Source: Euryarchaeota archaeon SM23-78 (lineage in GTDB: Archaea > Nanobdellota > Nanobdellia > Woesearchaeales > SM23-78). From it: a stretch of DNA of 64,000 nucleotides. The stretch spans positions 3,020 through 67,019 of the forward strand of contig LSSJ01000038.1 of the NCBI GenBank assembly GCA_001595785.1. The letters run 5' to 3'. Both the position numbers and the translations under genes were made by a program. The notes below the pieces were generated by a model. It did not search any database and was not told the origin of the DNA. It was given only the letters and a program-made list of their open reading frames with translations. Positions 7,721 through 60,521 of this stretch are shown here, one piece after another. How positions within the stretch are numbered: the first letter of the stretch is position 1; every line of letters starts with the position of its first letter.

Positions 7721-7737
7721 ATTGATGAGCCTCTTTA

Positions 7738-7768: not shown

Positions 7769-7832
7769 TTTTTTACTTATTTGAGTTCTCAAACCGAAAC
7801 ATTATTTAATCTTTTATATATACCTTGTCAAA

Positions 7833-13096: not shown

Positions 13097-13117
13097 TATC
13101 AGAAAGCCTAAAATAGC

Positions 13118-13149
13118 AACTTTCTTCCTATTCCCGGTCGGCGCATACT
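13118..13149 (+). repeat. Post-stop intergenic motif, family A copy 3
   Basis: CAACTTTCTTCCTATTCCCGGTCGGCGCATACT, 22 nt after the stop at 13096. Confidence 0.6.
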
Positions 13150-13213
13150 TTTTATTTACTAAATCGTAGTTAAATTCGTAATCTTTTTAAATTATTATTT
13201 ATTACGGTGATTT

Positions 13214-13555: not shown

Positions 13556-13572
13556 AAGATGCGCCACTTTAT

Positions 13573-13603
13573 CAACTTTCTTCCTGTTCCTAGTCGGCAC
13601 ATA
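13573..13603 (+). repeat. Post-stop intergenic motif, family A copy 4
   Basis: CAACTTTCTTCCTGTTCCTAGTCGGCACATA, 18 nt after the stop at 13555, between convergent genes. Confidence 0.6.
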
Positions 13604-13605
13604 TT

Positions 13606-25734: not shown

Positions 25735-26595
25735 ATGAGAAAAGCTGCTTATGCTGGCTTGTTCTATCCTAAAACTATTGCTAGTCTTAGCAAGATGCTA
25801 GAAGAATGCTTTACTAATAAATTAGGACCAGGCGCTCTTCCTAGCAAGCCAAGACCAGGGGCAAAGTCACTAAAAGCAGCTATCTCTCCTCATGCAGGCT
25901 ATGTTTATAGTGGGATGGCAGCTGCCTGGAGTTATAAAGCCTTAGCAGAAGCAGAGCTTCCTGACTTGTTCATCCTCCTAGGTCCTAATCACCGCAGTAA
26001 TGAATCAGGTGTTTCATTGGAAACCTTTGAAACCCCTCTTGGCTTTGTAAGACCAGACCAGGAGTTTGGAAAAGCCCTTGTGAAAAAAGATAACATAGTA
26101 ATTAATGAAAGGATTCATGCGCATGAGCACAGCCTAGAAGTACAATTGCCTTTTTTACAATTTGCTTTTGGTACTAGAGCTGAGAAAATAAAGATTCTTC
26201 CATTACTAGTATCAGATGACCTAGACCTTGACAAAGCAGCCAAGGACTTAAAAGAAACAATTAGTGAGATGAAGAGAAAAGTCACTTTTATTGTGAGCAC
26301 TGATTTTACACATTATGGCTTTAGTTATGGTTACATGCCATTTAGTGATAATATCAAAGAAAACCTCTCAAAACTGGATAAAGGAGCCATTAACTTAATA
26401 CTAAAAGGAGATGCTCAAGGATTTGAAAAATATATTCATAAGACAGGAGCAAGCATATGCGGTTACCTACCCATAATCTTGCTCTTAAAAATCATTACCT
26501 TTGATAAAGCCTCCTTAGAGCAGTACTATACCTCAGGAGATGTTGTTGGTGATTATAGTAATAGTGTGAGTTATGCGAGCATTGTGCTTAGGTAA
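25735..26595 (+). CDS. MEMO1-family protein (AmmeMemoRadiSam system protein B)
   Basis: MRKAAYAGLFYPK...ISPHAGYVYSG...EHSLEVQLPFLQ are the family motifs. ATG 25735 lies 6 nt after GAGGTGA; the track start 25729 is a GTG. Confidence 0.85.
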   Translation: MRKAAYAGLFYPKTIASLSKMLEECFTNKLGPGALPSKPRPGAKSLKAAISPHAGYVYSGMAAAWSYKALAEAELPDLFILLGPNHRSNESGVSLETFETPLGFVRPDQEFGKALVKKDNIVINERIHAHEHSLEVQLPFLQFAFGTRAEKIKILPLLVSDDLDLDKAAKDLKETISEMKRKVTFIVSTDFTHYGFSYGYMPFSDNIKENLSKLDKGAINLILKGDAQGFEKYIHKTGASICGYLPIILLLKIITFDKASLEQYYTSGDVVGDYSNSVSYASIVLR

Positions 26596-26621
26596 GCCGG
26601 TCTGGTGTTTGAGGACCGATG
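26596..26621 (+). repeat. Post-stop motif family B copy (GCCGGTCTGGTGTTTGAGGACCGATG)
   Basis: Immediately follows the stop at 26593-26595. The same GTCYGGYGTTTGAGRAC box follows the stops of hydG (49763-49789) and porD (59531-59557, minus strand). Confidence 0.6.
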
Positions 26622-26645
26622 AATTATTAAATTTAAAAAATAAAG

Positions 26646-26786
26646 GTGTTCAAAAAAAGTGCCCGCTCGGGCCTACTTATGACACCGAGGGCTCCACCTC
26701 CCCGTAGGGGGCACGTCCCCCTGTTCCGCTTTGATTATTAAACGGATATATGCCCTCGCAAATTGGCACTTACTTTTTTTGAACAC
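26646..26786 (-). ncRNA. Structured GC-rich element, copy 1 of 3 (unknown family; candidate ncRNA)
   Basis: The reverse complement aligns with 37430-37587 and 38680-38813. A 15-bp closing stem (GTGTTCAAAAAAAGT at 26646-26660 pairs with ACTTTTTTTGAACAC at 26772-26786) encloses conserved inner helices. No ORF of 60 aa or more covers it. Confidence 0.6.
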
Positions 26787-28702: not shown

Positions 28703-28852
28703 AAAATTAAAGAAAATTAAAAAAAGCAAAACTCATAAAAACGCATATATAAAAGACACACATATTAAAGCCAAAAATTAATTATCAACAATCAAAACAA
28801 AAAGATTTATATATTTACAAAAGGAAAGCAAGAATAAAAAAGGTGGATGAGT

Positions 28853-31828
28853 ATGGTTTATAAAAAGCACATGGTATTGTTAATATTTAGTATCATATTA
28901 TTCTTATTTATTCCTGCTCTTGTAAGTGCTGGCTGCTGTATTTATCAGACCCTAGGGAGCAGTTGTGAGAACAAAGCCAGTGAAGCTCAGTGCACCACAA
29001 CCCCTCAATTATTTGTAACTGATGATTGCACTGACAGACCAGAATGTGTTACTGGGTGTTGCTGTCTTTCTGATATTGGATTAATTGATGTTGGAAGCAC
29101 CAATTACTCCTGTGTTTTTACTTTTATTCCAAGCCCTTCTATTAGTCCTGGTGATAATTGCTCTTGTGCAATATCTACCTATTCTATTTCAGGAACCATC
29201 TATAGAATGACAGGAGGCTATGTGTCTGGTGCAATTGTGAGTGCCGCAAGCATATCAACCACTTCTGCTACTAACGGAGCTTATACCATAAACAATGTGC
29301 CTGAAGGAGATAGTATCACAGTGGCTGCTCATAAAACATCCGAGGGGTGTGCACCTAATAGTGTAACTATTGACCTACATCAGGACAGAACAGGCATTGA
29401 TATTAATCTTAACTGTGAGTGCACACCAGGTGTTTGTGACCCTAATAATAATGCCTATTGTTTATCAAGCAAAACATGGAAAATCTATGATTTAACCAAT
29501 ACATCACAGAAAGACGAGTACTGTCTTAGGTGTGGCTTAGATGACCCTGCTGATTGCGGAGCACCAGCAGAGTGTGTAAGTGGTGATGGAAAGTGCCCTG
29601 TAACTTGCAGCCCAAATGTTGATAGCCCCAAGTACGATTCTGATTGTGTGTGCAGCATGACTCCTAACCGGGCTTGTCCTCGTTGGTGTACCAAGGATAA
29701 TGATGCAGACTGTGCTGCTTATGCAGCTGTGTGCGGAGATGGATTAGTAACCTATCCTTATGAGACTTGTGAAGATAATCCTCAAACAGGACAACTAAGT
29801 CTGTGCAGCCCTAATGATTGCACTAACCCAGGAGAATCAGGTGAGTGTAATTGTGTTGGTTTATCAGCCTGTGGTAATTATATAATAGAATCAGGAGAAG
29901 ATTGTGAGATAGGAATGAAATGCCCAGATGGAAGTGATTGCTGGGATTGCTCCTGTGGCACGCCTCAGTGCCAGGGCAGCGCAATGAATCCTAGTGCTAC
30001 AGCAAGCTTTGATTCTAGTGCAAACGAAATTCTAGTTGAGTGGTCTGTTCTTAGCACTTGTAAAGCAAATGTGCTTTACTATTCTGTGTTTAAGTGTGAA
30101 AAAACACCGAGTTTTGATTGTTCAAGCAAAAGCATGTTTTCGCCATTCCGTCTTAACATACCTAAGTATCAATTTAATATAACAGAGAGTTCTGTTCCTT
30201 CAAATTCTGAATTCTGCTATGTGGTTAATGCTACTTATGCTGGCGGAGAAAAAGGAACGTCTAGTATTAAGTGTGTTAGCACAGGCCATCCTTATTGCAT
30301 GAATGTTCATCCTGATGAGTTCTGCATGAATAATGTGAGGAGCAAGTGTGATGCAGATGATAATATTCAGCCAATAGAGGATTGTAACCCTGACAAGTTT
30401 TGCATGGGACCAAATAGGGATGGCAAGACTTGGTGCTCAGATATAGACGTATGTGACATGTGCAATGGCCTCTACGGCATGTTCTCTAATATTGATTTAA
30501 AAGTCAATGTTTTGGAAGGAGGTGTTATAAGACCTAGGTATTGCCATCCTGGCGCAGGCAGGTATGTAGTAGAGGGTTGTTATCTTGACAGAACAAAAAC
30601 CTTGTTCAGTGCCTTTGATTACTGCTCTAATATTGTAAGTTGCTATGATTATAAATCACAAGAAGCATGTGAAGATAATGCAGATCCTTGTGGAAAAAAT
30701 CAGGATTGTGAATGGGTGTGGTTAGATAACTCTTATCATGAACTAGGAGGAATATGCAGACCTAATGCTCGTGAATTACAGACCTGTGAGCTATGTGATA
30801 ATAAGGATTATAACTGGATAACCCCTGCTTGCACCCCTGAGGTGTGTGCCTTGTTTGGAGATGAGTGCAAGTACCAAGGAATGTTTGCTAACCCAACATG
30901 CACTAAGAAATCCACGCTTGCTTGTATTGACTATACCACACAACAAGAGTGTATAGGAGGAACCGCAGTACATGTGAATGCGGTATATAATAGTAGTGGT
31001 GCCAGGACAGGAGGAACGCACCAACTCACACCTAGCAATGACAAGTTTGGACTTGGAAAATGTTATTGGCATGCAGTCAATAAATGGTGCTTAAGAAACG
31101 CTGATAATTATCCTGAGAATAACCAAGGCACCTATGGTCACGACTGTCCTCTTAATCGCAGAGATTGTGAATCAGACTTTATTAATCCTGAAACCATTAT
31201 TCTGCAATCTGGTTTTAGTCTTTACCCTGCAAATGTAAGAATAGAGTATACTGTGAATGATGATACCTTTCCTAGGAAGGACATCAAGACCTACTTTGGT
31301 TTAGTGCCTGCAGGCACACCTTGTTATCCAGACCAACTAGTTAGTGGCGGAGCCTTTCAAACCCTGGTAGAGGATGATGGAGATAACCTGCCTTATATAG
31401 TATGCTATTATTCAGAAGACTTTGCAAAAAACCTAGAACTCGTGAAGTCATTCCCTATAAATGTTGATGCAAACCCGCCAGTAATTACTATTACTTCGCC
31501 AACAGAGAGCGAGTTCAAAACAGCATCAGGCACCGTGGTGCTAAAAGGAATTACATCAATCGATACAATGAATCTGTGTACTTATACCCATGGTTCAAGC
31601 ACAAAGACCTGTATTAACACCTGCTTTTACGGACAGACGCCTTGTATAAATGAAGTAACAGGAGAATTCAACATAACAGTTAGTGTTCCTGCAAACGGGG
31701 CCTATGATGTGTTGTTTGATGCAGAAGACCGTGCAGGTAACCAGGTTGTTGGCCTGAGTCTGTTAGCTATTTATCGTAATGATACCCAGCCAAGAAAACC
31801 AATTATTATAATAGAGGGTGTACAATAA
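28853..31828 (+). CDS. Cysteine-rich secreted protein (~990 aa) with CarboxypepD_reg-like domain
   Basis: The track start is 28847, but ATG 28853 lies 6 nt after AGGTGG. Sec signal ...IPALVSA|GCC. The segment ISGTIYRMTGGYVSGAIVSA...TNGAYTINNVPEGDSITVAAHK is carboxypeptidase-regulatory-like. CGDG and CTPGVCD Cys motifs are shared with the next gene. Confidence 0.8.
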   Translation: MVYKKHMVLLIFSIILFLFIPALVSAGCCIYQTLGSSCENKASEAQCTTTPQLFVTDDCTDRPECVTGCCCLSDIGLIDVGSTNYSCVFTFIPSPSISPGDNCSCAISTYSISGTIYRMTGGYVSGAIVSAASISTTSATNGAYTINNVPEGDSITVAAHKTSEGCAPNSVTIDLHQDRTGIDINLNCECTPGVCDPNNNAYCLSSKTWKIYDLTNTSQKDEYCLRCGLDDPADCGAPAECVSGDGKCPVTCSPNVDSPKYDSDCVCSMTPNRACPRWCTKDNDADCAAYAAVCGDGLVTYPYETCEDNPQTGQLSLCSPNDCTNPGESGECNCVGLSACGNYIIESGEDCEIGMKCPDGSDCWDCSCGTPQCQGSAMNPSATASFDSSANEILVEWSVLSTCKANVLYYSVFKCEKTPSFDCSSKSMFSPFRLNIPKYQFNITESSVPSNSEFCYVVNATYAGGEKGTSSIKCVSTGHPYCMNVHPDEFCMNNVRSKCDADDNIQPIEDCNPDKFCMGPNRDGKTWCSDIDVCDMCNGLYGMFSNIDLKVNVLEGGVIRPRYCHPGAGRYVVEGCYLDRTKTLFSAFDYCSNIVSCYDYKSQEACEDNADPCGKNQDCEWVWLDNSYHELGGICRPNARELQTCELCDNKDYNWITPACTPEVCALFGDECKYQGMFANPTCTKKSTLACIDYTTQQECIGGTAVHVNAVYNSSGARTGGTHQLTPSNDKFGLGKCYWHAVNKWCLRNADNYPENNQGTYGHDCPLNRRDCESDFINPETIILQSGFSLYPANVRIEYTVNDDTFPRKDIKTYFGLVPAGTPCYPDQLVSGGAFQTLVEDDGDNLPYIVCYYSEDFAKNLELVKSFPINVDANPPVITITSPTESEFKTASGTVVLKGITSIDTMNLCTYTHGSSTKTCINTCFYGQTPCINEVTGEFNITVSVPANGAYDVLFDAEDRAGNQVVGLSLLAIYRNDTQPRKPIIIIEGVQ

Positions 31829-31862
31829 CTTTTATCCTTAATTTTGTTATGTGAGGTGTTTA

Positions 31863-34800
31863 ATGATAAAAAAGAGGTTTACCTTAATTGGAATCCTGCT
31901 CTACTTTTTGATAGGGCTGCTATTAATTCCTTTAGTTTTCTCAGTAATAAATATTGTTGTTGATCAAAACAGAGTGAAGATCACTGCAATTTATGAAGGA
32001 GATGTGGGTTTAGAAAAGGCTAACATAACTGATTTAATAGGAGACCAACTTTTTTATATATATCCTACAAATATAACTGTACAAAAAATATATCAGTCTG
32101 GTAATACAACTCTTAGATTTGGCGGCACAGGTTGTCCTCTTGGCTACTCTCCTTTAGGCATGCCCTATAGACCTTGTTTTATTTTAAACCCAGGGGATTA
32201 TACTTTCTCTGTTTCTGGTAGAACTGCTTTTGGAACTGTGAGGATTGATAATCCTGAGGAGTGTGATGGATATAATCTTAGCAATACTAATTGTAGTACT
32301 TACACAGATCCAAATACAGGAAAGCAACCCTTTGGAGGAGGAACCCTTTCTTGCTATGACTGCTCCTTTGATGTCTCAGGCTGTTTGGTGTGTGAGCCTA
32401 ATCATTGCTCTATTTGTGATAACCAGATTTGTTCTGGTAATGGAAAACAGTGGACCACGATTAATTATACTTGGATGTGCGGTCCAAAAGACAGTAATCT
32501 TGGGACTCTAGGCACAAGCTGTACTCCAGGGGTATGTGATGTTTTTGCAGGCATGGTGTGTGATTCAAATGGGTTCTGGACCAGCACAGGCTTTTGCACT
32601 TATTGCTCTGATGAGGATAGCTCTTGTTATGGTTCATGCACTCCAGGTAACTGTGATATTAGTGCTAAGGCTTTTTGTGACCAAGGCAGCTGGGTTACTC
32701 CTTTAACCAATGATTACTGTGCTGTGTGTGGCAACTATGATAGTGAGTGTCTTGGTGGTTGCTCAGGCAGTGCGTGTGATACTAAGAATAACAAGTATTG
32801 TAGTAGTGGAAGCTGGGTTTCTCCTAGCAGCCTGAATGATTATTGTCAGCGCTGTGGTCAAGTAGATGCTGATTGTGGCATTCCCATATGTATTGATGGA
32901 ACCTGTGATATTTGCAATGATGCTAAGAAGTACTGTAATAATGGGGTGTGGGAGAGTCAAAATTATTGTGATTATAGTAGGTGTGGAAGTTATGATTCTT
33001 GGTGCAATAGAAGCTGTCAACACGGCACATGTGATACTGTTGCTCATAAGTATTGTAGGTATAATCTCTGGGAATCTGACTGGGACACTTATTGTAATAA
33101 TTGTAAATCTCAAGATAGTTCTCTTTACTGCTTAAACCCAGAGGACTGTGGTAATGGAGTGATAGACAGATGGAATGTTAGTGGCTTTTGGGTTGGAGAA
33201 GCATGTGATAAAAAAGGACCTAACCTGAACGGAGCTAGCTGCCTAACCTGGCCTCAGTTTGTAGGAGGCACTCTTGGATGTGCTGATAATTGTTTGAGCT
33301 TTGACAGGAGCAGCTGCATCCTTAGGAACGAGTCTTGTGGTGATGATATTATCCAAGGAGATGATATGTGTGATGGAGATGACCTTGGAGGTAAGGATTG
33401 CACAGACCCAATCTTTAATTTTATGGGAGGCACTCTTGGATGCACCAATGATTGCAAGTATGATACTAGTAACTGCATTCCTTTTCCTGAGTGTGGTGAT
33501 GCTGTTGCTAACCAGGATTCTGAGGACTGTGATAAAGATGATTTAAGAGGAGAAACTTGTGAGTCTTTGGGTTATGCTGGTGGATCTTTAAAGTGTGATA
33601 ATGATTGTAGTTATGATAAATCTGGTTGTTATGGTGGTGTAAAGGTGTGTGGTGATGGTGTTGTTCAGAAGCCTAATGATGCTGGTTTTAATGAGCAGTG
33701 TGATATGGCTGATTTAAATAATATGGATTGTAAGGATTTTGATGGCTATACTGGTGGCACCTTGGTTTGTAATGGTGATTGTACTTATGATTACACTGGT
33801 TGCTCAGGCGGAACCTTTAAATGCAGTGATAGAGTAAAAAATCAGGAGTCAGAGGATTGTGACTATCTTGACCTAGGCGGAGAAACATGCGAATCATTGG
33901 GTTATGATAATGGTACCCTGGAATGTTTTAGTGATTGTACTTTTGATAAGTCTAGGTGCTATTTTAATCCTGGTTCAAAGGTGTGCGGGGATGGTACAGT
34001 TCAACAGCCAAATGATGCTGGTTTTAATGAGCAGTGCGATGTGGCTGACCTAGATGGTGCGAAGTGTAAGGACAAGGATGATTTTACAGGAGGCCTTCTG
34101 ACTTGTCATGGAGATTGTACTTTTAATTATGATATGTGCACAGGAGACAGCGGTGCTGTTTGTGGAAATAACATCCTAGAACCAGGTGAGCACTGTGACG
34201 GAGATGTTGAGGATGATGACTGTACATCTATTGGTAAGAAAAACTTTATTGGAGGAACCCTTAGCTGTTCAGATAACTGTGAGTTTGATACAAGTGATTG
34301 CATAGTAAACATAACTCCTCCTGTGTGTGGTGATGGAATAGTAAATGGCTATGAAGGGTGTGATGGCACTAACCTTGCAGGGCTTACCTGCGGATACTTT
34401 ACCCAGTATGTTAGTGGCACTCTTAAGTGCAATCAGAACTGCACTCTTGATTTTTCTAATTGTTTAAAACAAGGACAAACAGCTGCTCATTGCGAGAATA
34501 ATGTGACAGACGAGGACGAGACAGACCTTAACTGCGGAGGATTATCCTGCCCTGGATGTCCAAATGGTAAGAGGTGCTTGAATCATTCTGATTGTATATC
34601 AAACTATTGTTTATCAAATATATGCACAGAAGCAAGCTGCTCTGATACAATAAAAAACGGTCTTGAAACAGATGTAGATTGTGGAGCCAACTGTCCTTGT
34701 TGTGGCTTAGATATGAGTTGTAATATTAATTCTGACTGTTGCGGTCTTTTCTGCCACCCAGACACTCGCAAATGCGATGTTCCTTCATGTGATGATGGTT

Positions 34801-35750
34801 ATAAGAATGGTGAGGAAACAGATATTGATTGTGGGGATGGTTGCCCAGAAAAATGCGAAGTCGGTCAGGGTTGCGTGTCTCCTAATGATTGTAAATCAGG
34901 TTATTGCGACTTAGGGGTGTGCGCAGTTAACCCAACCCTTGACACAGACATGGACGGAATGCCTGACAAATGGGAGCTGAAATATGGCTTAGACCCTAAT
35001 AATCCTGATGATGCAAACCAAGACATGGACGGTGATGGTTATTCTAATCTTGACGAATATTTAGATGGAACAGACCCAACAGATCCAAATGACCCTCTGC
35101 CTAAGAAGAAGCACACCTTGCAAATCATTTTCTTAATAATAGGGTTGCTCTTAATGCTTGGCAGCATAGGCTTTTTGGTGTACTCAAGAATGGTGCTTGT
35201 ACCCCAGCAAAGAGCTGCTACTAGAAAAGCCCAGCCTCAAAGACCAATGCCCATGGCACAAAGAAGGCCTTTGGTAGGAAGAGGACAACCCAGACCTGGG
35301 AGAAGGATGCCTTTGGCAAGAAGAGGCTTGACCCAGAGACAGGCTTCAAGAAAGAGTTTGTTAAAAGGCTTTGAAAAAGAAGATAAGACAAAAGCACTAG
35401 GTGTTAAAAGGCCTGAAGCAAAACCTTTTGAAAAGAAACCTGTTAAACCAGTACAACCTACAAAGAAAGTAGCAAAAAAACCTGCGGCAAAACCAGCGCC
35501 TGCAGAAGAGTTTATTCCTTTATCAGAACTAGGAGCAAAGCAAAAACCAAAAGAAGAAAAAAAAGAGGCTCCTAAAAAACCTCTTGGCGGAGCATTTGAA
35601 AAACTAAGAGAATTATCAGGAGCCCAGAAGAAAAAGGATGTAAATAAAGAATCAAAACAAGCTGAGGAAGAAGCTGGAAAGGAAACTGGGAAGGAAACAG
35701 GTAAAGAGGCTAAGAAAGCAGAACCCAAAAAAGAAGAAGCTGATAAATAG
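31863..35750 (+). CDS. Repeat-rich cysteine-rich surface protein (~1295 aa) with C-terminal TM anchor and basic cytoplasmic tail
   Basis: The track start is GTG 31851, but ATG 31863 lies 4 nt after GAGGTG (MIKKRFTLIGILLYFLIGLLLIPLVFS). Domains in order: about 7 'C..C...DS.C...C.PG.CD....C....W' units, 8 CGDG-type units, 3 'NG.ETD.DCG' units, Asp-rich thrombospondin-type-3-like Ca-binding repeats, TM IIFLIIGLLLMLGSIGFLVY, and a ~190-aa K/P/R-rich tail. Confidence 0.85.
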   Translation: MIKKRFTLIGILLYFLIGLLLIPLVFSVINIVVDQNRVKITAIYEGDVGLEKANITDLIGDQLFYIYPTNITVQKIYQSGNTTLRFGGTGCPLGYSPLGMPYRPCFILNPGDYTFSVSGRTAFGTVRIDNPEECDGYNLSNTNCSTYTDPNTGKQPFGGGTLSCYDCSFDVSGCLVCEPNHCSICDNQICSGNGKQWTTINYTWMCGPKDSNLGTLGTSCTPGVCDVFAGMVCDSNGFWTSTGFCTYCSDEDSSCYGSCTPGNCDISAKAFCDQGSWVTPLTNDYCAVCGNYDSECLGGCSGSACDTKNNKYCSSGSWVSPSSLNDYCQRCGQVDADCGIPICIDGTCDICNDAKKYCNNGVWESQNYCDYSRCGSYDSWCNRSCQHGTCDTVAHKYCRYNLWESDWDTYCNNCKSQDSSLYCLNPEDCGNGVIDRWNVSGFWVGEACDKKGPNLNGASCLTWPQFVGGTLGCADNCLSFDRSSCILRNESCGDDIIQGDDMCDGDDLGGKDCTDPIFNFMGGTLGCTNDCKYDTSNCIPFPECGDAVANQDSEDCDKDDLRGETCESLGYAGGSLKCDNDCSYDKSGCYGGVKVCGDGVVQKPNDAGFNEQCDMADLNNMDCKDFDGYTGGTLVCNGDCTYDYTGCSGGTFKCSDRVKNQESEDCDYLDLGGETCESLGYDNGTLECFSDCTFDKSRCYFNPGSKVCGDGTVQQPNDAGFNEQCDVADLDGAKCKDKDDFTGGLLTCHGDCTFNYDMCTGDSGAVCGNNILEPGEHCDGDVEDDDCTSIGKKNFIGGTLSCSDNCEFDTSDCIVNITPPVCGDGIVNGYEGCDGTNLAGLTCGYFTQYVSGTLKCNQNCTLDFSNCLKQGQTAAHCENNVTDEDETDLNCGGLSCPGCPNGKRCLNHSDCISNYCLSNICTEASCSDTIKNGLETDVDCGANCPCCGLDMSCNINSDCCGLFCHPDTRKCDVPSCDDGYKNGEETDIDCGDGCPEKCEVGQGCVSPNDCKSGYCDLGVCAVNPTLDTDMDGMPDKWELKYGLDPNNPDDANQDMDGDGYSNLDEYLDGTDPTDPNDPLPKKKHTLQIIFLIIGLLLMLGSIGFLVYSRMVLVPQQRAATRKAQPQRPMPMAQRRPLVGRGQPRPGRRMPLARRGLTQRQASRKSLLKGFEKEDKTKALGVKRPEAKPFEKKPVKPVQPTKKVAKKPAAKPAPAEEFIPLSELGAKQKPKEEKKEAPKKPLGGAFEKLRELSGAQKKKDVNKESKQAEEEAGKETGKETGKEAKKAEPKKEEADK
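33147..34463 (+). repeat. Array of 8 tandem ~45-55-aa CGDG...GGTL.C..DC.(F/Y)D.S.C modules
   Basis: Units 3-4 and 5-6 are a recent two-unit duplication. For example, AATGATGCTGGTTTTAATGAGCAGTG occurs identically near 33670 and 34010. The motif resembles the 'myxococcus cysteine-rich repeat' class (CGDG....E.CD). Confidence 0.75.
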
Positions 35751-37429: not shown

Positions 37430-37587
37430 GCTGTCCTAAAAACTAGTGCCAATTTGCGAGGGCATTTATCAGCTTTACAGTCAAAGCGGAACAGGGGGTT
37501 GCCCCCTACGGGGAGGTGGAGCCCTCGACATTATAAGCGTGCCCGAGCGGGCACAGAGCGAGCGAATGCGAGCGATTTTAGGACAGC
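37430..37587 (+). ncRNA. Structured GC-rich element, copy 2 of 3 (unknown family; candidate ncRNA)
   Basis: A 12-bp closing stem (GCTGTCCTAAAA at 37430-37441 pairs with TTTTAGGACAGC at 37576-37587). Inner helices: AGTGCC/GGCAC, CGAGGGC/GCCCTCG, GGGGG-TTG-CCCCC and GTGCCC-GAGC-GGGCAC. Confidence 0.6.
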
Positions 37588-38679: not shown

Positions 38680-38813
38680 GCAAGGGTGGTGGTTGCCATT
38701 TGTTGCGAGGGCATACATCAACTTTACACTCAAAGCAGAAGAGGGGGTTGGCCCCTTCGGGGAGCTGGAGCCTTCGGAAAAATAAGTGGGCCCGAGCCTG
38801 GCAACCCCCTTGC
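38680..38813 (+). ncRNA. Structured GC-rich element, copy 3 of 3 (unknown family; candidate ncRNA)
   Basis: Closing stem GCAAGGG..GGTTGCCA / TGGCAACCCCCTTGC. Inner helix CGAGGGC/GCCTTCG has one G-U pair, which is valid only for a plus-sense RNA. The CCCC-TTCG-GGGG tetraloop hairpin is present. Confidence 0.6.
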
Positions 38814-47876: not shown

Positions 47877-47987
47877 TATGTTTCACCTCTAATTTATCAA
47901 TCGGTTTTTATCTTTAAATAACTTTTGATTAATTATTATCTATTAATAATAACCTTTAAATACCTGCTTTTGCTTTTCTTATTGATT

Positions 47988-48941
47988 ATGGGTAAGGTTT
48001 TGGGAAAAAAGAGGTTGTATGAGTTCCTAGAAAAGGTTTCTAAAGGTGCTGACTTAATTGCTCCTGTTAAAACAGATACGCTTAGGTTTGGAATTATTAA
48101 GGATTTTAATGACATCTGCCTTGAGGGCAGGCCTCTTTTTCCTCTTAAGAAGTTCTTTTCACCTGCAAAACAAGACTTGTTCAGGTTGAACCTTGGTGAA
48201 AAAGACGAGCCTTTCAAGGAAGAGAAAATAATGATTAAGCCCAGGGTTATATTCGGCGGTAGACTATGTGATTTTAACGGCTTATTAAAGCTTGATAAAC
48301 TTTTCTTGTCAGAAGAATTCCAGGATGATTATTACAAGGAAGCCAGGGAAAAAACCTTGCTGATTGGCATTAACTGTGACCCACCTCCCAGCAAGTATTG
48401 TTTTTGCGAGTCAATGGATTTAGAGAAATATTATGATTTATTCTTTCATGACATGGGAGATAAGTATTATATTGAGTCAGGCAGTGCTAAAGGACAAGCC
48501 TTAATAATGGATTTAGAGGATTATGACTTCTTGATGCCTAATATTCATTGTGAAAAAAAGCTGGTTAGGAAAGAGCTTGCTCAGCACTATGAAGACCCTG
48601 CTTGGGAGCAAGAGAATGAGAAGTGTCTTAGCTGTGGAAAATGCACTTCTCACTGCACTACTTGTCTCTGCTTTGATATGCTTGATGAGATGCAAGCTAA
48701 TCTTAAAAATGGTAAGCGCTCCAAGGAATGGGATTCGTGCCAGTTTGAAAACTTCACTCTTGTTGCAGGAGGTCTTGTTTTCAGAAAGGAGCGGCTTCCC
48801 AGGTTTAAACACAGGATTTATCATAAACTGCAGTACTTTAGGGAAAAGTTTGGCATGGACATGTGCACTGGGTGTGGCAGATGCATTGAGGCTTGTCCTA
48901 GGTTGATTGATTTTACAGAGGTGATTAATAAGTTCAAATAA
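47988..48941 (+). CDS. hydB: Sulfhydrogenase (group 3b NiFe hydrogenase) beta subunit, 4Fe-4S protein
   Basis: ATG 47988 (MGKVLGKKRLYEFLEK); the track start 47925 adds an unlikely hydrophobic leader. Cluster motifs are CLSCGKCTSHCTTCLC and CTGCGRCIEACP (AsrA-like). Confidence 0.75.
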   Translation: MGKVLGKKRLYEFLEKVSKGADLIAPVKTDTLRFGIIKDFNDICLEGRPLFPLKKFFSPAKQDLFRLNLGEKDEPFKEEKIMIKPRVIFGGRLCDFNGLLKLDKLFLSEEFQDDYYKEAREKTLLIGINCDPPPSKYCFCESMDLEKYYDLFFHDMGDKYYIESGSAKGQALIMDLEDYDFLMPNIHCEKKLVRKELAQHYEDPAWEQENEKCLSCGKCTSHCTTCLCFDMLDEMQANLKNGKRSKEWDSCQFENFTLVAGGLVFRKERLPRFKHRIYHKLQYFREKFGMDMCTGCGRCIEACPRLIDFTEVINKFK

Positions 48942-48953
48942 AGAGAAGGAAAA

Positions 48954-49754
48954 ATGTTATTCAAATCAGAAACTTTCAAGATTGTGAAAAAAGAGAAGCA
49001 AACAGAGGATGATTGTTTGTTTAGGCTAGAGCCTGTTGGCAAGAAAAAAATAAAGCTTAGTTATGAACCAGGCCAGTTCTTTCAAGTATCTGCTCCTGGA
49101 ATTGGAGAAGCACCTTTCTCTGTTTGTTCATATGATAAAGAGTTTATTGAATTCAACATCCGAGGATTAGGAGATGTTACTAATCATTTATTAAAGCTAG
49201 AGCCAAGCGATAAAATATGTCTTAGAGGTCCTTATGGCACCAGCTATCCAATGGAACAATTAAAAGGTAACAGCCTGGTGATTATTGGTGGAGGCACAGG
49301 CGTGGCTCCTCTTAGAGGGGTGTTAAAGTATCTTGAGAAGCACAGAGCTGATTATGATAGAGTGCATCTCTTCTTTGGTTTTAGAGATCCTAATGAAATC
49401 TTGTTTAAGAAGGATATGGAGCAGTGGAACAGAATCTTTGACCTAAACCTGACTGTTGATAAAGCACCTGATAGTTATACAGGCAAGGTTGGTTTAGTCA
49501 CTAAGATTGTTGAGGAGTCAGGTCTTAATAACAAGAAAAAAGCAGTTATGATATGCGGTCCTCCAATAATGATAAAGTTCACAATCCTGACTCTGGAGAA
49601 GCTTGGATTTCACCATGACCAAATCTTTGTGAGCTTTGAGAGAAGAATGAAGTGCGGGGTTGGCATGTGCGGTCACTGCATGATATCAGGTTTGTATGTT
49701 TGCAAGGATGGTCCTGTTTTTAGATATGATAAGGTTAAAGGGTTGCATGAGTAG
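48954..49754 (+). CDS. hydG: Sulfhydrogenase gamma subunit (FAD/NAD(P)-binding, 2Fe-2S)
   Basis: Ferredoxin-NADP-reductase-like fold (GQFFQV, GGGTGVAPL) with the C-terminal motif CGVGMCGHC. Confidence 0.8.
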   Translation: MLFKSETFKIVKKEKQTEDDCLFRLEPVGKKKIKLSYEPGQFFQVSAPGIGEAPFSVCSYDKEFIEFNIRGLGDVTNHLLKLEPSDKICLRGPYGTSYPMEQLKGNSLVIIGGGTGVAPLRGVLKYLEKHRADYDRVHLFFGFRDPNEILFKKDMEQWNRIFDLNLTVDKAPDSYTGKVGLVTKIVEESGLNNKKKAVMICGPPIMIKFTILTLEKLGFHHDQIFVSFERRMKCGVGMCGHCMISGLYVCKDGPVFRYDKVKGLHE

Positions 49755-49862
49755 AATTAATAAGTCTGTCCGGCGTTTGAGAACTCGATACTTATTGTTT
49801 AAAATTTTGAAGTTAAAATAAAAATAATTATTTGCTCGCTCGCTTTGCTCGCGAGGGAAAAG
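49755..49862 (+). promoter_or_regulatory. Conserved ~110-nt intercistronic module (hydG-hydD spacer)
   Basis: Reads AATTAAT..GTCCGGCGTTTGAGAAC, then an AT-rich stretch with GTTTAAAAT and AAATAAAAAT, then GCTCGCTCGCTTTGCTCGCGAGGGAAAAG and ATG. The same layout and boxes occur in the porD-porA spacer. Confidence 0.6.
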
Positions 49863-50666
49863 ATGAAAAAGACAAAAAAAGCATCAAAAGCAAAAAAGCC
49901 TAGAGTAGGCATCCAGAGCATTACTGGGTGTGCTGGCTGCCAGTTAAGTTTATACTTCATAGAGGATGTCCTGCTTGAACTGTTTGATAAGATAGAGTTG
50001 GTTGCTGCTCCAATGATTAAGGGTAAGAATGAAGAAGAAAATTATGATATTTTATTTGTTGAGGGCAGTGTTAGTTCAAAAGAAGACTTGGAAAATCTGC
50101 TTAAGTGGAGAAAACAAGCTAAGTTCTTGATTGCTCTGGGGGCGTGTGCTTCTCATGGTTGCATGCAGTCAATGAAGCACATGATGCATGAAGAAGAAGT
50201 AGAAGCAGCTGTTTATAATAAGTTTCCTTCTGATAAAAGATTAAAGCCAATTACTGCTGTTCCTTTACATAAGCATGTTCAAGTTGATTTTTACATCCCT
50301 GGTTGTCCTCCTGACAAAGAGGAAATTGAAAGGGTGCTTAAATGGCTTTTACAAGGCATAAAACCAAGGGTTTATGACAAGGCTGTTTGTCATGAGTGCA
50401 GTTTAAAAGAAAATTATTGCTTGTTAGATCAAGGGATAGAATGCTTAGGGCCTTTGATGAACGGTGGATGCAAAGCCTTATGTCCTGATTATAATCATCC
50501 CTGTACTGGATGCAGAGGCATGCTTGATGATGCTAATCTTAAGTCAGGCAAAGAGATATTAAGGGATAAAGGCTTTGACCCTGACTTAATGATAAAGAGG
50601 ATGACTAAATATAATACTTTACAGTTCATGGAGTTTGAGAGTAAGCCTAAGGAAGAGAAAAAGTAA
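49863..50666 (+). CDS. hydD: Sulfhydrogenase delta (small) subunit
   Basis: ATG 49863 follows GAGGGAAAAG. GCAGCQLS, GACASHGC and PGCPP are NiFe small-subunit/NuoB-like motifs. Confidence 0.85.
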   Translation: MKKTKKASKAKKPRVGIQSITGCAGCQLSLYFIEDVLLELFDKIELVAAPMIKGKNEEENYDILFVEGSVSSKEDLENLLKWRKQAKFLIALGACASHGCMQSMKHMMHEEEVEAAVYNKFPSDKRLKPITAVPLHKHVQVDFYIPGCPPDKEEIERVLKWLLQGIKPRVYDKAVCHECSLKENYCLLDQGIECLGPLMNGGCKALCPDYNHPCTGCRGMLDDANLKSGKEILRDKGFDPDLMIKRMTKYNTLQFMEFESKPKEEKK

Positions 50667-56237: not shown

Positions 56238-58268
56238 TTATCCTTTGCCACACCATCTCTTCAGCTCTTCCCATCTAGTATCAATATTCTTTTGGAGCTG
56301 TTCAATGATGTGTTGGTTTTCTGGCTTCATTAAATGCCTGAACCTTTTCTGCATCTTAAGCCATTCAATTACTGTCTTTTTATTATCGCCAGGGTCATAG
56401 TTCAGTATCCACTTACCATTATCCACTTCAAATAAAGGCCAGAAACAAGTGTCAACTGCCATCTTAGCAAGCTTTAAGGTTAAGTGCATTGGATATTTCC
56501 ATCCAGGAACACAAGGACTTAGCACATTGATAAAGGCAGGTCCTTTGACTGCAAAGGCTTTTTCTGCTTTTCTAACCAAATCCATATAATTATGAGGGCT
56601 GGCTTGAGCAACATAAGGGATATGATGACCTGCAACCACTGCTGTCAAGTCTTTTTTGAACTGTTCTTTACCTTTATGCACTTTTCCTACTTGAGATGTA
56701 TTGGTCCATGCACCAAAAGGAGTGCTGCTACTTCTCTGAATGCCTGTGTTATGCACCACTATACCGTCAGCCACAAAGTTGTGCTCGCCTTCAACTCTTA
56801 AGTCTAAAGTTGGTTGTTCCTTTACAAACTTAACAGAAATTATTTTTTCAGAGCTAAACCATTCATTATCTGCTAAGAAGTCTCTTTGTTTTGTTTGAGA
56901 AAGATATTTTTTAATGTCAGGTTGTTTCTTTTTACTAAAACAGATGTATCCATAACTGGAATCTTCTAATAACTCTCTGTAAACTACGAGGCTTCCCTTC
57001 TTTTTCTTTTGTTGATGTATCTTTCCCACTCTGTAAGTCATTGTTTGTAGCAATAATCTTAGTGTTTTTAACAACTCAATACTTGCAGATACATATCTGT
57101 GGCTTCTTCCTATTTTGTATCCATCTGAAAGCATTAATCCTTTGAGAAAGGCTTCTTTTTCTTCTTGTGGTAAGGTAAAAAGCCAGCTTGGAATGATTTT
57201 ATTCTTTGCTCCATTACCAAAACCAAGCGAATCAATAAATTTAGCTAGATTTACTGAGTATATGTAAAAATAATTTTTATCTTTTTCAGATAATTCTTTT
57301 CTAAATATTTTTCTATAAACCTCTTTTAATCTCTTTCTTGCTTTTGTGTTTCTTGGGAGAGCAAAACCTGTTTCTGCTTTATGAGTTCGAATCCACCCAT
57401 CGCCTACAAAGAGCCCTAAGAATTCCATTAATGCAGGAGAACTCTTCTTCGGGATCTTAACCTCATTAATCTTGTTTACCTTGTAATCTCCTTTTTTAGA
57501 TAGCTTAATAGCAGGGAAATTATAACTCTTGCCTTGTCTCAGTTTTTTTAACACTATTACCTCATCATTAGGTTTTAGTTGTGCTAGTGTTTTCCAGACT
57601 AACTTATTCTCTTTTTTACTTCTGCTTCTTTTAACAACAAGGAAAGGATGGTTTGAAGTGGCTTTTATTGTGTGGTGTAAGGTGCTCAACTCATAAACTT
57701 TCTTGACACCATTATCAAAAATACCAGTGCACCTTTTCAAAACTAGGCTTCCATTTTTCTGGTTAAAAGCATAAACTTTTTCTCCTATTTTTATCTCTGT
57801 AATTCTTTTCAAACCTTTTTCTGTCATTATAAGAGCGTCTAAACTTAAACAATTCATGTAGCCTTCATTATCAACGCATACATAAACAAAGTTATGTCCT
57901 CTTTCTAAGGCTCCTGAAAGTGACTGGAGTCCTATGTCATAGGTTCCTCCGTCCCCACCAAAAGCAAGGAATTTTATTTCTTTCTGAATCTTACCTTTCT
58001 TTTTCAAAACTTCATAAGCAGCTTCTGCTCCACTAATAGTAGCTGCAGCATTCTCAAAAGCATTATGAATCCAAGGAACATTCCAAGCAGTATATGGATA
58101 GATAGTTGTGCTAACCTCTAAGCAGCCAGTAGCAGTGGCTACCACGATTGGATCTTTGGTGCCTCTCATAACAGCTCGAGCAATAATACTAAGACCACAA
58201 CCAGGGCAAAGCCTATGACCAGGTGCTAATCGTTCTCCGGTTAATGCAAGTTCTCTAATGTTTGGCAT
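56238..58268 (-). CDS. porB: Pyruvate (2-oxoacid):ferredoxin oxidoreductase beta subunit, interrupted by an intein
   Basis: The N-extein has CPGCG and the TPP motif [10 protein letters not shown]...[10 protein letters not shown]. The C-extein resumes [15 protein letters not shown].... Joined exteins total 308 aa, a normal PorB size. Confidence 0.9.
56748..57851 (-). mobile_element. LAGLIDADG-type intein (368 aa) in PorB
   Basis: Starts at the Cys codon 57851-57849 (N|[13 protein letters not shown]) and ends at the His-Asn codons 56753-56748 (GIVVHN|T). Two dodecapeptide motifs are present: [10 protein letters not shown] and [10 protein letters not shown]. The +1 residue is Thr. Confidence 0.9.
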
Positions 58269-58269
58269 T

Positions 58270-59454
58270 TTATTCTCTCACTCCCAAATATCTCACTCTT
58301 TCACCAAGATTACCTTTCTTTACTTCTTCTAACTCATTAAACACTTTTTTTATCTGTTCTAAATCCAGTTCTCTTCCTCCTAGTCCATAAATGTAATCAA
58401 TAATATTTGGTTTTTCTTTTATCTCATGGAATGAGCTTCTTATCTCACTAAAGATAGGTCCTCCAAAGGCTCCAAAGCTATCGCTTCTATCAAGCACAGC
58501 AACTGCTTTTATCTTTCCAAGCTTTTCAACAACCATTTCATTAAGCCAAGGCCTGAACACTCTCATCTTTAACAAACCGACTTTTTGTCCTTTTGCTCTT
58601 AGCTCGTCAACAACCACTCTTACTGTTCCTGCACTGCTATTAGCGCACACAATAACTTTTTCAGCGTTTTCAAGCTTGTAGCCTTCAAAAAAGTCATATT
58701 TTTTTCCTGTTATTTTACCAAATTCATCAAACACTTCTCTTATAACACGCTTTGCATTCTGCATTGCTAGTACTTGTTGTCTTTTATGCTCAAAATAATA
58801 ATCAAACAAGTCAAGAGGACCATAAGTCACTGGTTTATCAACATCAAGCAAAGGATAATGACCTGTATGTTCTCCTACAAAATTCTTAACAGTCTCATCA
58901 TCAAGGATTTCTGCTGTTTCAACACTATGACTGGTAATGAATCCATCTTGGCAAACCATTACTGGCAATAAGACATCTTTGTGCTCACCAATTCTTACTC
59001 CCATAATTGTGTTTTCATAAGCTTCTTCTCCATTCTCAGAATACATTTGAATCCATCCAGTGTCACGACAACCCATGCTATCAGAATGGTCACAATGAAT
59101 ATTAATAGGAGCGCTTAATGCCCTGTTCACAACGTTCATAACTATTGGCAGCCTGGTGCTAGAAGCAATATAAACAATCTCCCACATTAATGCTAAACCA
59201 TTAGCACTGGTTGCTGTCATTGCACGAGCACCAGCAGCACTAGCCCCCACACAAGCACTCATAGCACTATGCTCAGACTCAACAGTAACCAAATCAGTAT
59301 CAATAATACCATCAGCAACAAACTGGGAAAAAGAATGCATGATATTAGTCTGAGGAGTAATAGGATAAGCAGCAACAACATCAGGATTAATCTGACGCAT
59401 AGCCTCTGCTGTGCACTGAGCTCCTGTGTATGCTTTACGAGTTTTTTGTACCAT
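58270..59454 (-). CDS. porA: Pyruvate (2-oxoacid):ferredoxin oxidoreductase alpha subunit
   Basis: 394 aa with AYPITPQT and [20 protein letters not shown], typical of PorA. The stop is 1 nt from the porB start. Confidence 0.9.
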
Positions 59455-59568
59455 TTTTTCCCTCGCGAACGTAGTGAGCGAGCGTAGTTATTTTATTTTT
59501 AATTTTTATTTAATTTTAAACTAAATTTTTCATTGGTCCTCAAACGCCGGACTGGCTTAAATTAATTC
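59455..59568 (-). promoter_or_regulatory. Conserved ~110-nt intercistronic module (porD-porA spacer)
   Basis: The minus-sense sequence reads GAATTAAT..GTCCGGCGTTTGAGGAC, then an AT-rich stretch with GTTTAAAAT and AAATAAAAAT, then CGCTCGCTCACTACGTTCGCGAGGGAAAAA and ATG. It is collinear with the hydG-hydD spacer. Confidence 0.6.
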
Positions 59569-59955
59569 TTAGTCTTTGAACTCCTTTTCCTCTTTCATCT
59601 CAATTGCTTTGAAAGGGCACTCCTCTGCGCAGATACCACAACCCTTGCAATAATCCAAATCAAAGCCTCCGAAGTTGCCAAGATTAGCTTTATCACTCAC
59701 TCCTTTTTTGCCTTTGTTAGGATCATCAACCCCTCCGACCTTTACGCAGGAATCAGGGCATACCATCCAGCAAATCATGCAATTAGTGCATTTCTCAGGT
59801 ATATGTATTGGTCTGAAAGTCCTCCAATCACCTGTTTTGTACTCCTTGCTATTACCTGCTTCAAGGATTTTTCCTCCTATAGGTATCTCTTTCCAATTCT
59901 TTAATTTCTGCTTATGCTCTTCATGATGTGTGTGCTGAGAGTTTGCTTCTGTCAT
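59569..59955 (-). CDS. porD: Pyruvate:ferredoxin oxidoreductase delta subunit (2x4Fe-4S ferredoxin)
   Basis: CTNCMICWMVCP and CKGCGICAEECP cluster motifs. N-terminal His-rich stretch. Confidence 0.85.
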   Translation of the reverse strand: MTEANSQHTHHEEHKQKLKNWKEIPIGGKILEAGNSKEYKTGDWRTFRPIHIPEKCTNCMICWMVCPDSCVKVGGVDDPNKGKKGVSDKANLGNFGGFDLDYCKGCGICAEECPFKAIEMKEEKEFKD

Positions 59956-60521
59956 ACATTAACCTCATTATATGCTCTTTCAAAAGCCTTAACATTCTTT
60001 TCAGCAAGGTCTTTGCCAAGGAGATATTCAAAATGCTTGAACATATGATTTTTTAGGAATTCAAAATCAACAATATTAGTTGCTTTTTCAACAACACCCA
60101 GCATTGCAGTGTTAGTCACTGCTCTTCCCAGCTCTTCAAGAGCAATCTTAATAGCATCTATAACAATGATTTTACCCTTAAAATCAACCACGCTCTTAAC
60201 TTCATTAACAGATTGATTAGCATTAATAATAAGAAGTCCATCATCATCCAAACCCTCTGTCACAGGAATACTCTTAAGCAAGGTCTGATCAACAACCACA
60301 ACAACATTAGGATTAGTAACACCAGAATGAAGATAGATCGGCTTATCACTAATCCTAGTATAAGCCTTAACCGGCGCTCCCTGTCTCTCAGCACCATATT
60401 CAGGAAAGCTCTGAACAAATTTACCTTGCTCAATAGCAGCTTCTGCTAAGAGAGCAGCAGCTGTTTTAGCACCCTGGCCACCCCTACCATGAAACCTTAT
60501 CTCAAAGATGTCTTTGGACAT
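59952..60521 (-). CDS. porG: Pyruvate:ferredoxin oxidoreductase gamma subunit
   Basis: IRFHGRGGQGAKTAAALLAEAA...FPEYGAERQGAP is the gamma-subunit signature. There is a 4-nt overlap with porD. Confidence 0.88.
   Translation of the reverse strand: MSKDIFEIRFHGRGGQGAKTAAALLAEAAIEQGKFVQSFPEYGAERQGAPVKAYTRISDKPIYLHSGVTNPNVVVVVDQTLLKSIPVTEGLDDDGLLIINANQSVNEVKSVVDFKGKIIVIDAIKIALEELGRAVTNTAMLGVVEKATNIVDFEFLKNHMFKHFEYLLGKDLAEKNVKAFERAYNEVNV

Follow-up and report, generated by a model that had tools for sequence, protein, structure and literature searches.

Why should two tightly packed archaeal operons each be opened, between two of their genes, by a spacer of about 110 nt built to the same plan? The question is raised by a 64-kb stretch of contig LSSJ01000038.1 from the Woesearchaeota metagenome-assembled genome (MAG) SM23-78 (hereafter the window, meaning the whole 64,000 nt that was analyzed), in which the hydrogenase (hyd) operon is parted between hydG and hydD and the pyruvate:ferredoxin oxidoreductase (por) operon between porD and porA. 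Neighboring genes in these operons are close-set: porG and porD overlap by 4 nt, porA and porB are 1 nt apart, and hydB and hydG 12 nt apart, as the original prediction on this DNA had stated, and Pfam searches agreed with the gene identities it had assigned. It had further proposed that the two spacers are copies of a single repeated cassette rather than random spacer DNA. We find that the feature is real and was correctly described, and that it is not specific to redox genes: the hydG/hydD and porD/porA spacers are copies of a dispersed mosaic repeat found in one Woesearchaeota clade and in similar AT-rich archaeal contigs. A full cassette is 95–170 nt long and has three parts, a conserved hairpin motif that we call box 1, an AT-rich linker, and a 3′ block containing a GC-rich hairpin (Table 1).

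The two spacers align collinearly, with 86 of 118 columns identical and a global score of 50.5, compared with −6.1 ± 4.5 in 2000 shuffles (z = 12.6). The box-1 string GTCYGGYGTTTGAGRAC occurs exactly three times in the window (at 26600, 49768, and, on the minus strand, 59536), a count reached in 0 of 100 shuffles, and the GC-block string GCTCGCTCRCTNNGYTCGCGAGGGAAAA occurs twice where none is expected. The third box 1 lies after the Memo gene, as had been reported, and is 83% identical to the por spacer over 46 nt (26593–26638); the component parts listed earlier for the module also match those found here. Chance resemblance of AT-rich spacer DNA, for which only the AT-richness of the linker speaks, is a negligible prospect given the alignment score, the motif counts never reached in shuffles, and more than a dozen further copies in other contigs.

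Table 1. Cassette copies and flanking genes in the window (bits are covariance-model scores, R1 or R2)
Feature	Positions	Strand	Particulars
Full cassette copy 1, entire hydG/hydD spacer	49755–49862	+	108 nt
Copy 1, box 1	49762–49784	+	AAGTCT, stem GTCC 49768–49771, loop GGCGTTTGA 49772–49780, GAAC 49781–49784; R1 40.1 bits
Copy 1, AT-rich linker	49785–49820	+	octamer TTTAAAAT at 49798–49805
Copy 1, 3′ block	49821–49862	+	TAATTATTT, G, hairpin, GGAAAAG, hydD ATG at 49863; R2 67.1 bits
Full cassette copy 2, entire porD/porA spacer	59455–59568	−	114 nt
Copy 2, box 1	59536–59558	−	AAGCCA, GTCC-GGCGTTTGA-GGAC; R1 50.1 bits
Copy 2, TATA-like octamer TTTAAAAT	59513–59520	−	15 nt after box 1, 29 nt before GC hairpin block
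Copy 2, 3′ block	59452–59498	−	AAATAAAATAACTAC, GCTCGC-TC-AC-TAC-GT-TC-GCGAG, GGAAAAA, into porA ATG; R2 58.5 bits
Box-1-only copy after Memo gene	26593–26639	+	R1 40.1 bits
hydB	47925–48941	+	Pfam
hydG, FAD/NAD-binding gamma subunit with Fe-S domain, upstream of copy 1	48954–49754	+	Pfam; stop TAG 49752–49754
hydD, NiFe hydrogenase small subunit (Oxidored_q6), downstream of copy 1	49863–50666	+	Pfam
NiFe large subunit gene, after hydD	ends 52047	+	Pfam
porG	59952–60521	−	Pfam
porD, 2x[4Fe-4S] delta subunit, upstream of copy 2	59569–59955	−	Pfam
porA, alpha subunit, downstream of copy 2	58270–59454	−	Pfam
porB	56238–58268	−	Pfam

Box 1 consists of (T/A)AAGCC-N, a stem of 4–6 bp, a fixed 9-nt loop, GGCG(T/A)TTGA, and the closing stem. 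In nearly all copies it begins 0–17 nt after the stop codon of a gene on the same strand, and in three its own TAA serves as the stop codon. Stem changes between copies are compensatory (GTCC/GGAC, GTGC/GCAC, CGCC/GGCG, TCCCC/GGGGA, GCGC/GCGC). The Memo copy has the stem CGGTCT/GGACCG and the loop GGTGTTTGA, followed by ATGAATTATTAAA and TTTAAAAA; its TAAGCC provides or overlaps the Memo stop codon, and the next element, in place of the GC hairpin, is an unrelated structured element of ~120 nt. No coding remnant or small ORF was recognizable in box 1, where substitutions are not synonymous in any frame, and a Shine–Dalgarno (SD) role for its GAGG was set aside since that position is variable (GAGC, GAGA, GAGG).

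Linkers measure 35–85 nt, and their sense strand is rich in A (A 367, T 237). Runs of five or more A are found in 9 of 13 linkers and runs of five or more T in one of the 13, whereas ordinary window spacers of at least 40 nt carry T5 or longer after the upstream gene in 14 of 26 cases. The longest T-run is 4 nt in the hyd cassette and 3 nt in the por cassette, and on these counts an archaeal terminator was rejected. In 7 of 11 full copies a TATA-like octamer, TTTAAAAT, follows box 1 by 13–15 nt, and about half of the full copies, among them both in the window, have it 20–29 nt ahead of the GC hairpin.

The 3′ block comprises AAAWTWATTATTT, the hairpin CTCGC-TC-RC-loop-GY-TC-GCGAG, and RRAAAA. 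The inner pair of this GC hairpin is A-T (A-U) in six copies and G-C in four, the loop is variable (one copy has an extra C-G pair closing a UUCG loop), and the TC/TC internal loop is invariant; in alignment A2, 94.7% of cells pair, compared with 31–45% when the partners are slid. The hairpin of the hyd copy, CTCGC(49835–49839)-TC-GC-TTT-GC-TC-GCGAG(49851–49855), has a folding energy of −14.3 kcal/mol (z = −2.2). Whole-spacer folding energies did not differ significantly from those of shuffles (z = −0.1 and −0.5), and no long-range pairing between box 1 and the GC block was found. Two subfamilies, GAGAAC-TCGA and GAGGAC-YRATGAAAAATTTA, are each common to the window and contig L134. New relative to the original prediction are the hairpin form and covarying stem of box 1, its occurrence by itself, and the hairpin form of the GC block with its conserved internal loop.

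Both motifs are partial palindromes, and they might be read as double-stranded DNA operators, box 1 (GTCC-N9-GGAC) and the GC block (CTCGC-N11-GCGAG) each binding a dimeric factor that coregulates the flanking genes. Archaeal repressors usually bind between an AT-rich stretch and the start codon, which is where the GC block lies, and hyd and por are both redox genes. However, the half-sites of box 1 change together while the nonpalindromic loop stays fixed, the opposite of operator behavior; the spacing between the GC-block arms varies from 9 to 13 nt; and the genes flanking the family at large are functionally unrelated. The operator reading thus appears largely refuted by the covariation pattern, and we consider it highly improbable. 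As to a specific candidate, a SurR-type site (GTTn3AAC) was considered for GTTTGAGAAC and rejected: the spacing is n4, most copies have GAGGAC, and the flanking genes are not redox-specific.

A box-1 pattern restricted by its flanks was found in 19 metagenome contigs, 14 of them AT-rich. Full cassettes are present in L123 (ORF147/porB), L133, L134 (two copies), L136, L140, L142, L143, and L145. That in L140 lies between the genes for RNA polymerase A″ and ribosomal protein L30e (rpoA2/rpl30e), that in L145 between Sua5 and a phosphoesterase, those in L142 and L136 upstream of dnaG and dnaK, respectively, and one in L134 follows an AMMECR1-like gene. Because the flanking genes elsewhere are so diverse and functionally unrelated, the association with redox operons, which the original prediction had stressed, is incidental. 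Box 1 also stands alone at gene ends, in L123, L130, L132, L138, and L148 as well as after Memo in the window, and four such box-only copies are followed by a T5–T7 run; in L135 and L155 it forms inverted doublets. The GC hairpin, by comparison, has a box 1 51–100 nt upstream in 15 of 15 instances, although the box is degenerate in the L123 porB copy. A downstream start codon lies ahead of 11 of 13 full copies, the ATG being 4–81 nt beyond the GC hairpin. In 226 kb of related loci box 1 has ~20 copies, all intergenic, or about one per 10–20 kb. Searches of 341 kb, the two distant Woesearchaeota loci among them, with covariance models of both parts turned up nothing more. No Rfam family matched the window at gathering score, and a permissive search with the spacer returned only noise (E ≥ 0.19). 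In viral collections the box-1 core matched four times, in high-GC contigs, and the box-1 pattern restricted by its flanks did not match; 16 viral hits to the GC block all lay inside high-GC coding DNA and were dismissed as chance, leaving no link to viruses.

Two other repeat families in the window border on this subject. The GC-rich structured element of ~120 nt is present in three copies that are 83–87% alike, at 26659–26777 (+), 37438–37554 (−), and 38703–38797 (−), each closed off by a long outer stem that varies in sequence among the copies; it has no Rfam match. Its first copy directly follows box 1 and TTTAAAAA at the Memo gene end, and just ahead of the second copy is CGCTCGCATTCGCTCGCTC, which resembles the cassette GC block. 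A second post-stop repeat family follows the stops at 6399, 7720, 13096, and 13555 (+), with repeat D10 at 7724–7773, 13102–13151, and 13558–13607. Its core, CCYGGTCGGCRCA, is followed by a T5–T6 run and is for that reason terminator-like; the core bears a loose likeness to the 5′ half of box 1 (CCTGTCCGGCG).

The same operon junctions were compared in relatives of the window. The hydG/hydD junction is tight in L124 (TAAATAAAATG), L126, L128 (TAAGATG), L153, L155, and L156, with hydD identities of 72–85%, and is overlapping or tight in the distant outgroups L157 and L158 (~50% identity). L123 has at this position only a box-1 variant, GTGC-GGCGTTTGA-GCAC, and L154 an unrelated 64-nt spacer. 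At porD/porA, the junction is short in L126; L128 is built like the window, but its GC block is reduced and its box 1 is the variant CGCC-GCCGATTGA-GGCG; in L155 an A-rich linker separates a forward box 1, with a TCCCC/GGGGA stem, from one in reverse complement; and L123 retains a relic, EEKEFKD*-TAAGATG, behind a different hairpin insert. Within the sequencing runs of DNA that contain the window, a co-occurring contig skips 49756–49872, and another has 9 nt in place of 59458–59568. Since the hydG/hydD junction is tight or overlapping in eight relatives and co-occurring strains skip both spacers, the two spacers are lineage-specific insertions into ancestrally coupled junctions, in agreement with the earlier claim that the module was inserted inside otherwise tightly coupled operons. 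Both junctions have been hit repeatedly. Read depth over the cassette segments is 4–10 times that of the flanks, and other copies must therefore exist in the same samples; among these copies the match begins at 49821 and ends at 49857–49861. The different insert at the porD 3′ end (L123, 18261–18324; L126, 19496–19565) is a double-hairpin element of ~58 nt within the last codons, which carries its own stop (GATTAAG) and leaves the old EEKEFKD* codons and TAAGATG junction behind as a relic.

Such turnover would be expected of a selfish or neutral repeat, resembling repetitive extragenic palindromes (REPs) or the miniature inverted-repeat type of transposable element (MITE), that is spread by recombination or a transposase and that persists only at sites where it is harmless, precisely between genes and with an orientation that adds no terminator; its hairpins would be recognition structures for a mobilizing enzyme and not expression signals. 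Presence and absence vary among close relatives and within samples, and the same junctions were hit independently by box 1 alone (hyd in L123), by another hairpin insert (porD in L123 and L126), and by box-1 variants (por in L128 and L155). The subfamilies are common to several genomes, inverted doublets occur (L135, L155), and a conserved loop on a variable stem is typical of protein-recognized hairpins such as REPs. Near-identical copies are also found at different loci of one population: cassettes in L134 (2989–3116), L143 (773–900), and L144 (5525–5652), from two samples, have swapped flanks (A-X, B-Y, B-X), which may reflect recombination at the repeat or may be assembly chimeras formed there. 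On the other side, the 5′ end (AAGCCNGTCC...) and the 3′ end (...CGCGAGRRAAAA) of the cassette are not complementary, as the terminal inverted repeats of a MITE would be; no target-site duplication is present at the ancestral TAAGATG-type sites when filled and empty hydG/hydD and porD/porA junctions, the two sites that can be so compared, are aligned; the end hairpins bear no relation to one another; among the 40 window ORFs, and next to the copies examined, no transposase was detected; and the bias of orientation relative to transcription is very strong. As a complete account of the family, pure selfishness therefore seems to us unlikely.

We favor, at a probability of roughly 40%, a reading in which the cassette is a mosaic repeat, similar to REPs and to bacterial interspersed mosaic elements (BIMEs), that is transcribed through and punctuates operon mRNA. 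Transcription from hydB or porG would run through the cassette as part of the operon mRNA; this read-through is expected because the cassettes are without an oligo-T tract and archaeal termination depends on U5–U7 tracts (PMC7515710). Terminal genes of the window, unlike the cassettes, carry T-tracts. The insert would abolish the stop–start translational coupling of the old TAAGATG-type junction and would place the box-1 hairpin at the leading edge of the terminating ribosome; REPs no more than 15 nt from the stop codon affect translation of the upstream gene in E. coli (PMC12306157). The AU-rich, single-stranded linker would be a likely site of endonucleolytic cleavage, after which the upstream segment would end in box 1 as its 3′-terminal hairpin and the downstream segment would begin with the GC hairpin at its 5′ terminus, and the operon halves could then decay and be translated independently. 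In E. coli, operon segments are stabilized by internal 3′ structures and by structured 5′ ends made by RNase E (PMC5927463). Punctuation would also explain why the GC hairpin is found only with box 1, while box 1 also stands alone at terminal genes, because a GC hairpin would be needed only at processed 5′ ends; its constant accompaniment by an upstream box 1 (15 of 15) agrees with action at 5′ ends that are processed and not primary. Translation of the downstream gene would probably use GAGG at the 3′ end of the cassette, 6 nt before the ATG in both window copies, as a replacement ribosome-binding site. The GAGGG SD of the original prediction fits the two window copies; elsewhere in the family it does not, as the downstream gene has its own SD 4–81 nt further on.

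Several observations weigh against this reading. The box-1 hairpin is weak (−4.8 to −8.8 kcal/mol, z about 0), and its stem has a C/A mismatch at one pair in members of the GAGAAC subfamily, the hyd copy among them; the conservation of box 1 is therefore mostly of sequence, which suggests a specific binding partner. Covariation is limited, with double changes at only two pairs in 11 sequences. Orientation is not uniform: copy 1 of L134/L144 faces a convergent gene, copy 2 of L144 is antisense between two genes, and box 1 occurs in reverse orientation in L155 and L135, so that sharing the orientation of the upstream gene, though strongly favored, is not invariable. Read-through, cleavage, and stabilization are all steps that we infer from sequence. 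Finally, the TATA-like box at a fixed spacing from box 1 is a feature that mRNA punctuation does not need.

That box is the starting point for a different explanation, also put forward in the original prediction, in which the cassette is a portable internal promoter and leader. TTTAAAAT would recruit TATA-binding protein (TBP) and transcription factor B, transcription would start ~24 nt downstream of it, at the GC hairpin or immediately ahead, and the hairpin would be the 5′ end of a new hydDA or porAB mRNA, leaving box 1 as a 3′-untranslated-region element of the upstream gene or as an upstream activator site. The octamer is like the TATA boxes of this genome (TTTAWAWA, 26–45 nt or more before start codons), and with its spacing described above it would, in both window copies, set the transcript start at the base of the GC hairpin. 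In L148, which has box 1 only, TTTAAAATA between the box and the next gene resembles that gene's promoter. The aim of 11 of 13 full copies at a downstream start codon also agrees with a promoter, and a linker free of T-runs would likewise be required downstream of a start site. Against this, genuine promoters in the window have an A-rich stretch, resembling a B recognition element, directly upstream of the TATA box, where the cassette has TTAAG, TTTAG, or TATTG; TATA-like strings arise in any AT-rich spacer; and with no oligo-T terminator ahead of the box, transcription of the downstream genes would occur in any case. A promoter also leaves without a function both the placement of box 1 at the stop codon and the internal loop conserved in the GC hairpin, and in copy 1 of L134/L144 it would drive transcription into the 3′ end of a gene that converges on it. 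We regard the promoter reading, judged from sequence features, as possible though doubtful on its own, nearly as likely as RNA punctuation; the two are not mutually exclusive.

Among known elements, the cassette would work most like REP/BIME mosaics and Correia- or BOX-type cassettes, and it is a demonstrated member of none. REPs and BIMEs of E. coli and other Proteobacteria are likewise short, GC-rich, imperfect palindromes, intergenic, often just after stop codons, and cotranscribed inside operons; their units and conserved linkers form mosaics with inverted doublets, and the lone copies of box 1 at gene ends and its inverted doublets make the present family REP/BIME-like. Documented REP effects are protection of the 3′ end of the upstream mRNA segment and the translational effect within 15 nt of the stop (PMC12306157, PMC5927463). 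Unlike a REP, box 1 lacks the 5′ GT[AG]G tetranucleotide and has the conserved flank (T/A)AAGCC instead, and its stem is short (4–6 bp) with a large conserved 9-nt loop, where that of a REP is long. Unlike the second unit of a BIME, that of the cassette is an unrelated hairpin, and the linker is long, AT-rich, and equipped with a TATA-like box; in the window, box 1 is single or paired with this unrelated hairpin, inverted doublets being confined to L135 and L155. The host is archaeal. REPs number hundreds per genome, whereas the copy number of box 1 looks low (three in the 64-kb window), and no match to Y1_Tnp, the domain expected of a REP-associated tyrosine transposase (RAYT), was found among the 40 window ORFs.

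Correia elements of Neisseria, BOX elements of Streptococcus pneumoniae, and enterobacterial repetitive intergenic consensus (ERIC) elements or intergenic repeat units are noncoding, modular intergenic cassettes of 100–160 nt that are cotranscribed and are reported to bring promoters, processing sites, or stabilizing structures (reviewed in PMC10969869). BOX elements share with our cassette the arrangement of conserved end modules around a variable middle. Terminal inverted repeats are found in Correia and ERIC elements, and a TA target duplication in the former; the cassette has neither, has no sequence similarity to any of these, and belongs to a different domain of life. The arrangement proposed here also has a counterpart in E. 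coli operon segments, where a 3′ hairpin and a hairpin at a processed 5′ end give unequal stoichiometry from one operon (PMC5927463); those structures are mostly unique and within coding regions, whereas the two hairpins of the cassette, known here from sequence, travel together as an insertable spacer.

Other candidate classes fared less well. Palindrome-associated transposable elements (PATEs) derived from IS200/IS605 were rejected, since the end hairpins are unrelated in sequence and shape and no TnpA or TnpB was seen; the same examination showed a conserved (T/A)AAG before box 1 and copies on both strands within 10 kb, following gene direction. Integron attC sites were rejected for want of R″(RYYYAAC)/R′(GTTRRRY) cores and of complementary ends. 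Compared by eye with the consensus, which has a canonical stem, a 3-nt bulge, and tandem sheared G·A/A·G pairs, loop variants GGC-GA-UU-GA fit the letters of a K-turn or K-loop (the L7Ae site), but the fit is partial: GU replaces the first GA in half of the copies, and the loop would be closed by just 2 nt. Literature searches with the motif string and for DPANN repeats found no description of the cassette, which is a new repeat family to be set beside REP/BIME, Correia, and BOX-type elements.

A scan of a genome collection for box 1 led to a different domain. The matches listed were in Streptomyces, Embleya, and Actinacidiphila (L003–L122), with none archaeal among them. In these genera a very abundant intergenic multihairpin mosaic, CA-GCCCGTCCGGCGTTTGAGGAC-GAGGCCGTTCAGGCC-..., begins with the unit GCCCGTCCGGCGTTTGAGGAC, and this first unit, GCCCGTCCGGCG(T/A/C)TTGAGGAC, is identical to the archaeal box-1 consensus at 20 of 21 positions. 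Like box 1, it has a fixed 5′ GCC, a fixed loop (GGCGNTTGA), a covarying 4-bp stem, a place in a multihairpin mosaic, and inverted doublets; stems among the matches listed were GTCC/GGAC (at least 173), CTCC/GGAG (at least 15), and CGCC/GGCG (at least 9). Unlike box 1, Streptomyces copies do not tend to share the direction of the upstream gene (39 same and 55 opposite among the matches listed), and the repeat differs from the cassette in its high-GC bacterial host, its great abundance, and the units that follow. The unit has no Rfam family, and as a query against a plasmid collection it gave four records with no useful annotation. In Embleya hyalina (L012), a unit of the Streptomyces type forms a tandem array with a 66-nt period.

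By a rough estimate, two independent families would share such a 21-mer by chance with a probability on the order of 1e-3 or less, and the identity may reflect homology, shared recognition, or coincidence. Box 1 might then be a cross-domain structured motif, present in Woesearchaeota and Streptomycetaceae because the same kind of factor recognizes it, perhaps a HUH/RAYT-like single-strand nuclease that spread horizontally or else an RNA-binding component of universal occurrence; the motif recognized would consist of the fixed GCC, the covarying stem, the fixed GGCGNTTGA loop, and possibly a tiny GCC/GGC pseudoknot. This is a long shot, argued from sequence identity. If true, it would be the first REP-type mobilization or recognition system to be described from DPANN archaea, and one that they share with Actinobacteria. 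The second helix of that minimal pseudoknot would pair the 5′ GCC of box 1 with GGC of its loop; it is invariant in the ~200 Streptomyces copies listed and has one compensatory archaeal variant (GGC/GCC, in L128 and L155), which is too little for a claim.

The source of the window is a DPANN archaeon with a GC content of ~38%. An identical locus is present in GCA_019322785.1 and in one ENA assembly, and the nearest named hydD homologs come from Candidatus Woesearchaeota and Nanoarchaeota MAGs. A search of sequencing runs found the locus in DNA runs only, from marine sediment and seawater metagenomes; no RNA run matched. The window also codes for PolD DP2, MCM, an RNase P p30-like protein, and TBP (16539–17483, −; 314 aa), whose lysine-rich N-terminal extension is encoded by 12- and 15-nt tandem repeats (17182–17478). 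An ORF at 19928–25645 (+; 1905 aa) has a Hint/PT-HINT domain near residues 292–424 and is otherwise unannotated, and large ORFs at 28847–31828 and 31851–35750 had no significant Pfam match; internal repeats of ~330 nt lie within 33510–34144.

The flanking operons vary in other respects. PorB (676 aa, compared with ~306) contains an intein with a LAGLIDADG homing-endonuclease domain within its thiamine pyrophosphate-binding domain; L123, L128, and L156 also carry it, and L126, L153, and L155 are without it. An extra gene lies between hydD and the NiFe large subunit gene in L128 (a PHP-domain protein, 10962–11699) and in L156 (an S-adenosylmethionine methyltransferase, 10783–11538), and the hydrogenase operon of this clade has therefore been remodeled in several ways. 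The hydD N-terminus is lysine-rich and of varying length in the clade (window 49863–49900; L123, L126, L128, L155), and gene callers push the hydD start of relatives upstream over the short junction or box 1, to 283–302 aa compared with ~265 aa.

DPANN archaea have very compact genomes and are uncultured, and their expression signals are almost unknown. Here, an insertable spacer splits conserved operons for hydrogenase, pyruvate:ferredoxin oxidoreductase, and RNA polymerase/ribosomal protein, and DPANN operons are in this way repunctuated over short evolutionary timescales. As the cassette is a defined sequence of ~110 nt, its effect on transcription, RNA processing, and subunit stoichiometry is directly testable. 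For annotation, it explains the upstream-extended hydD and porA calls in relatives, and it explains why assemblies may break or turn chimeric at these sites. The close match of box 1 with the Streptomyces unit would be of wider interest if it is no coincidence.

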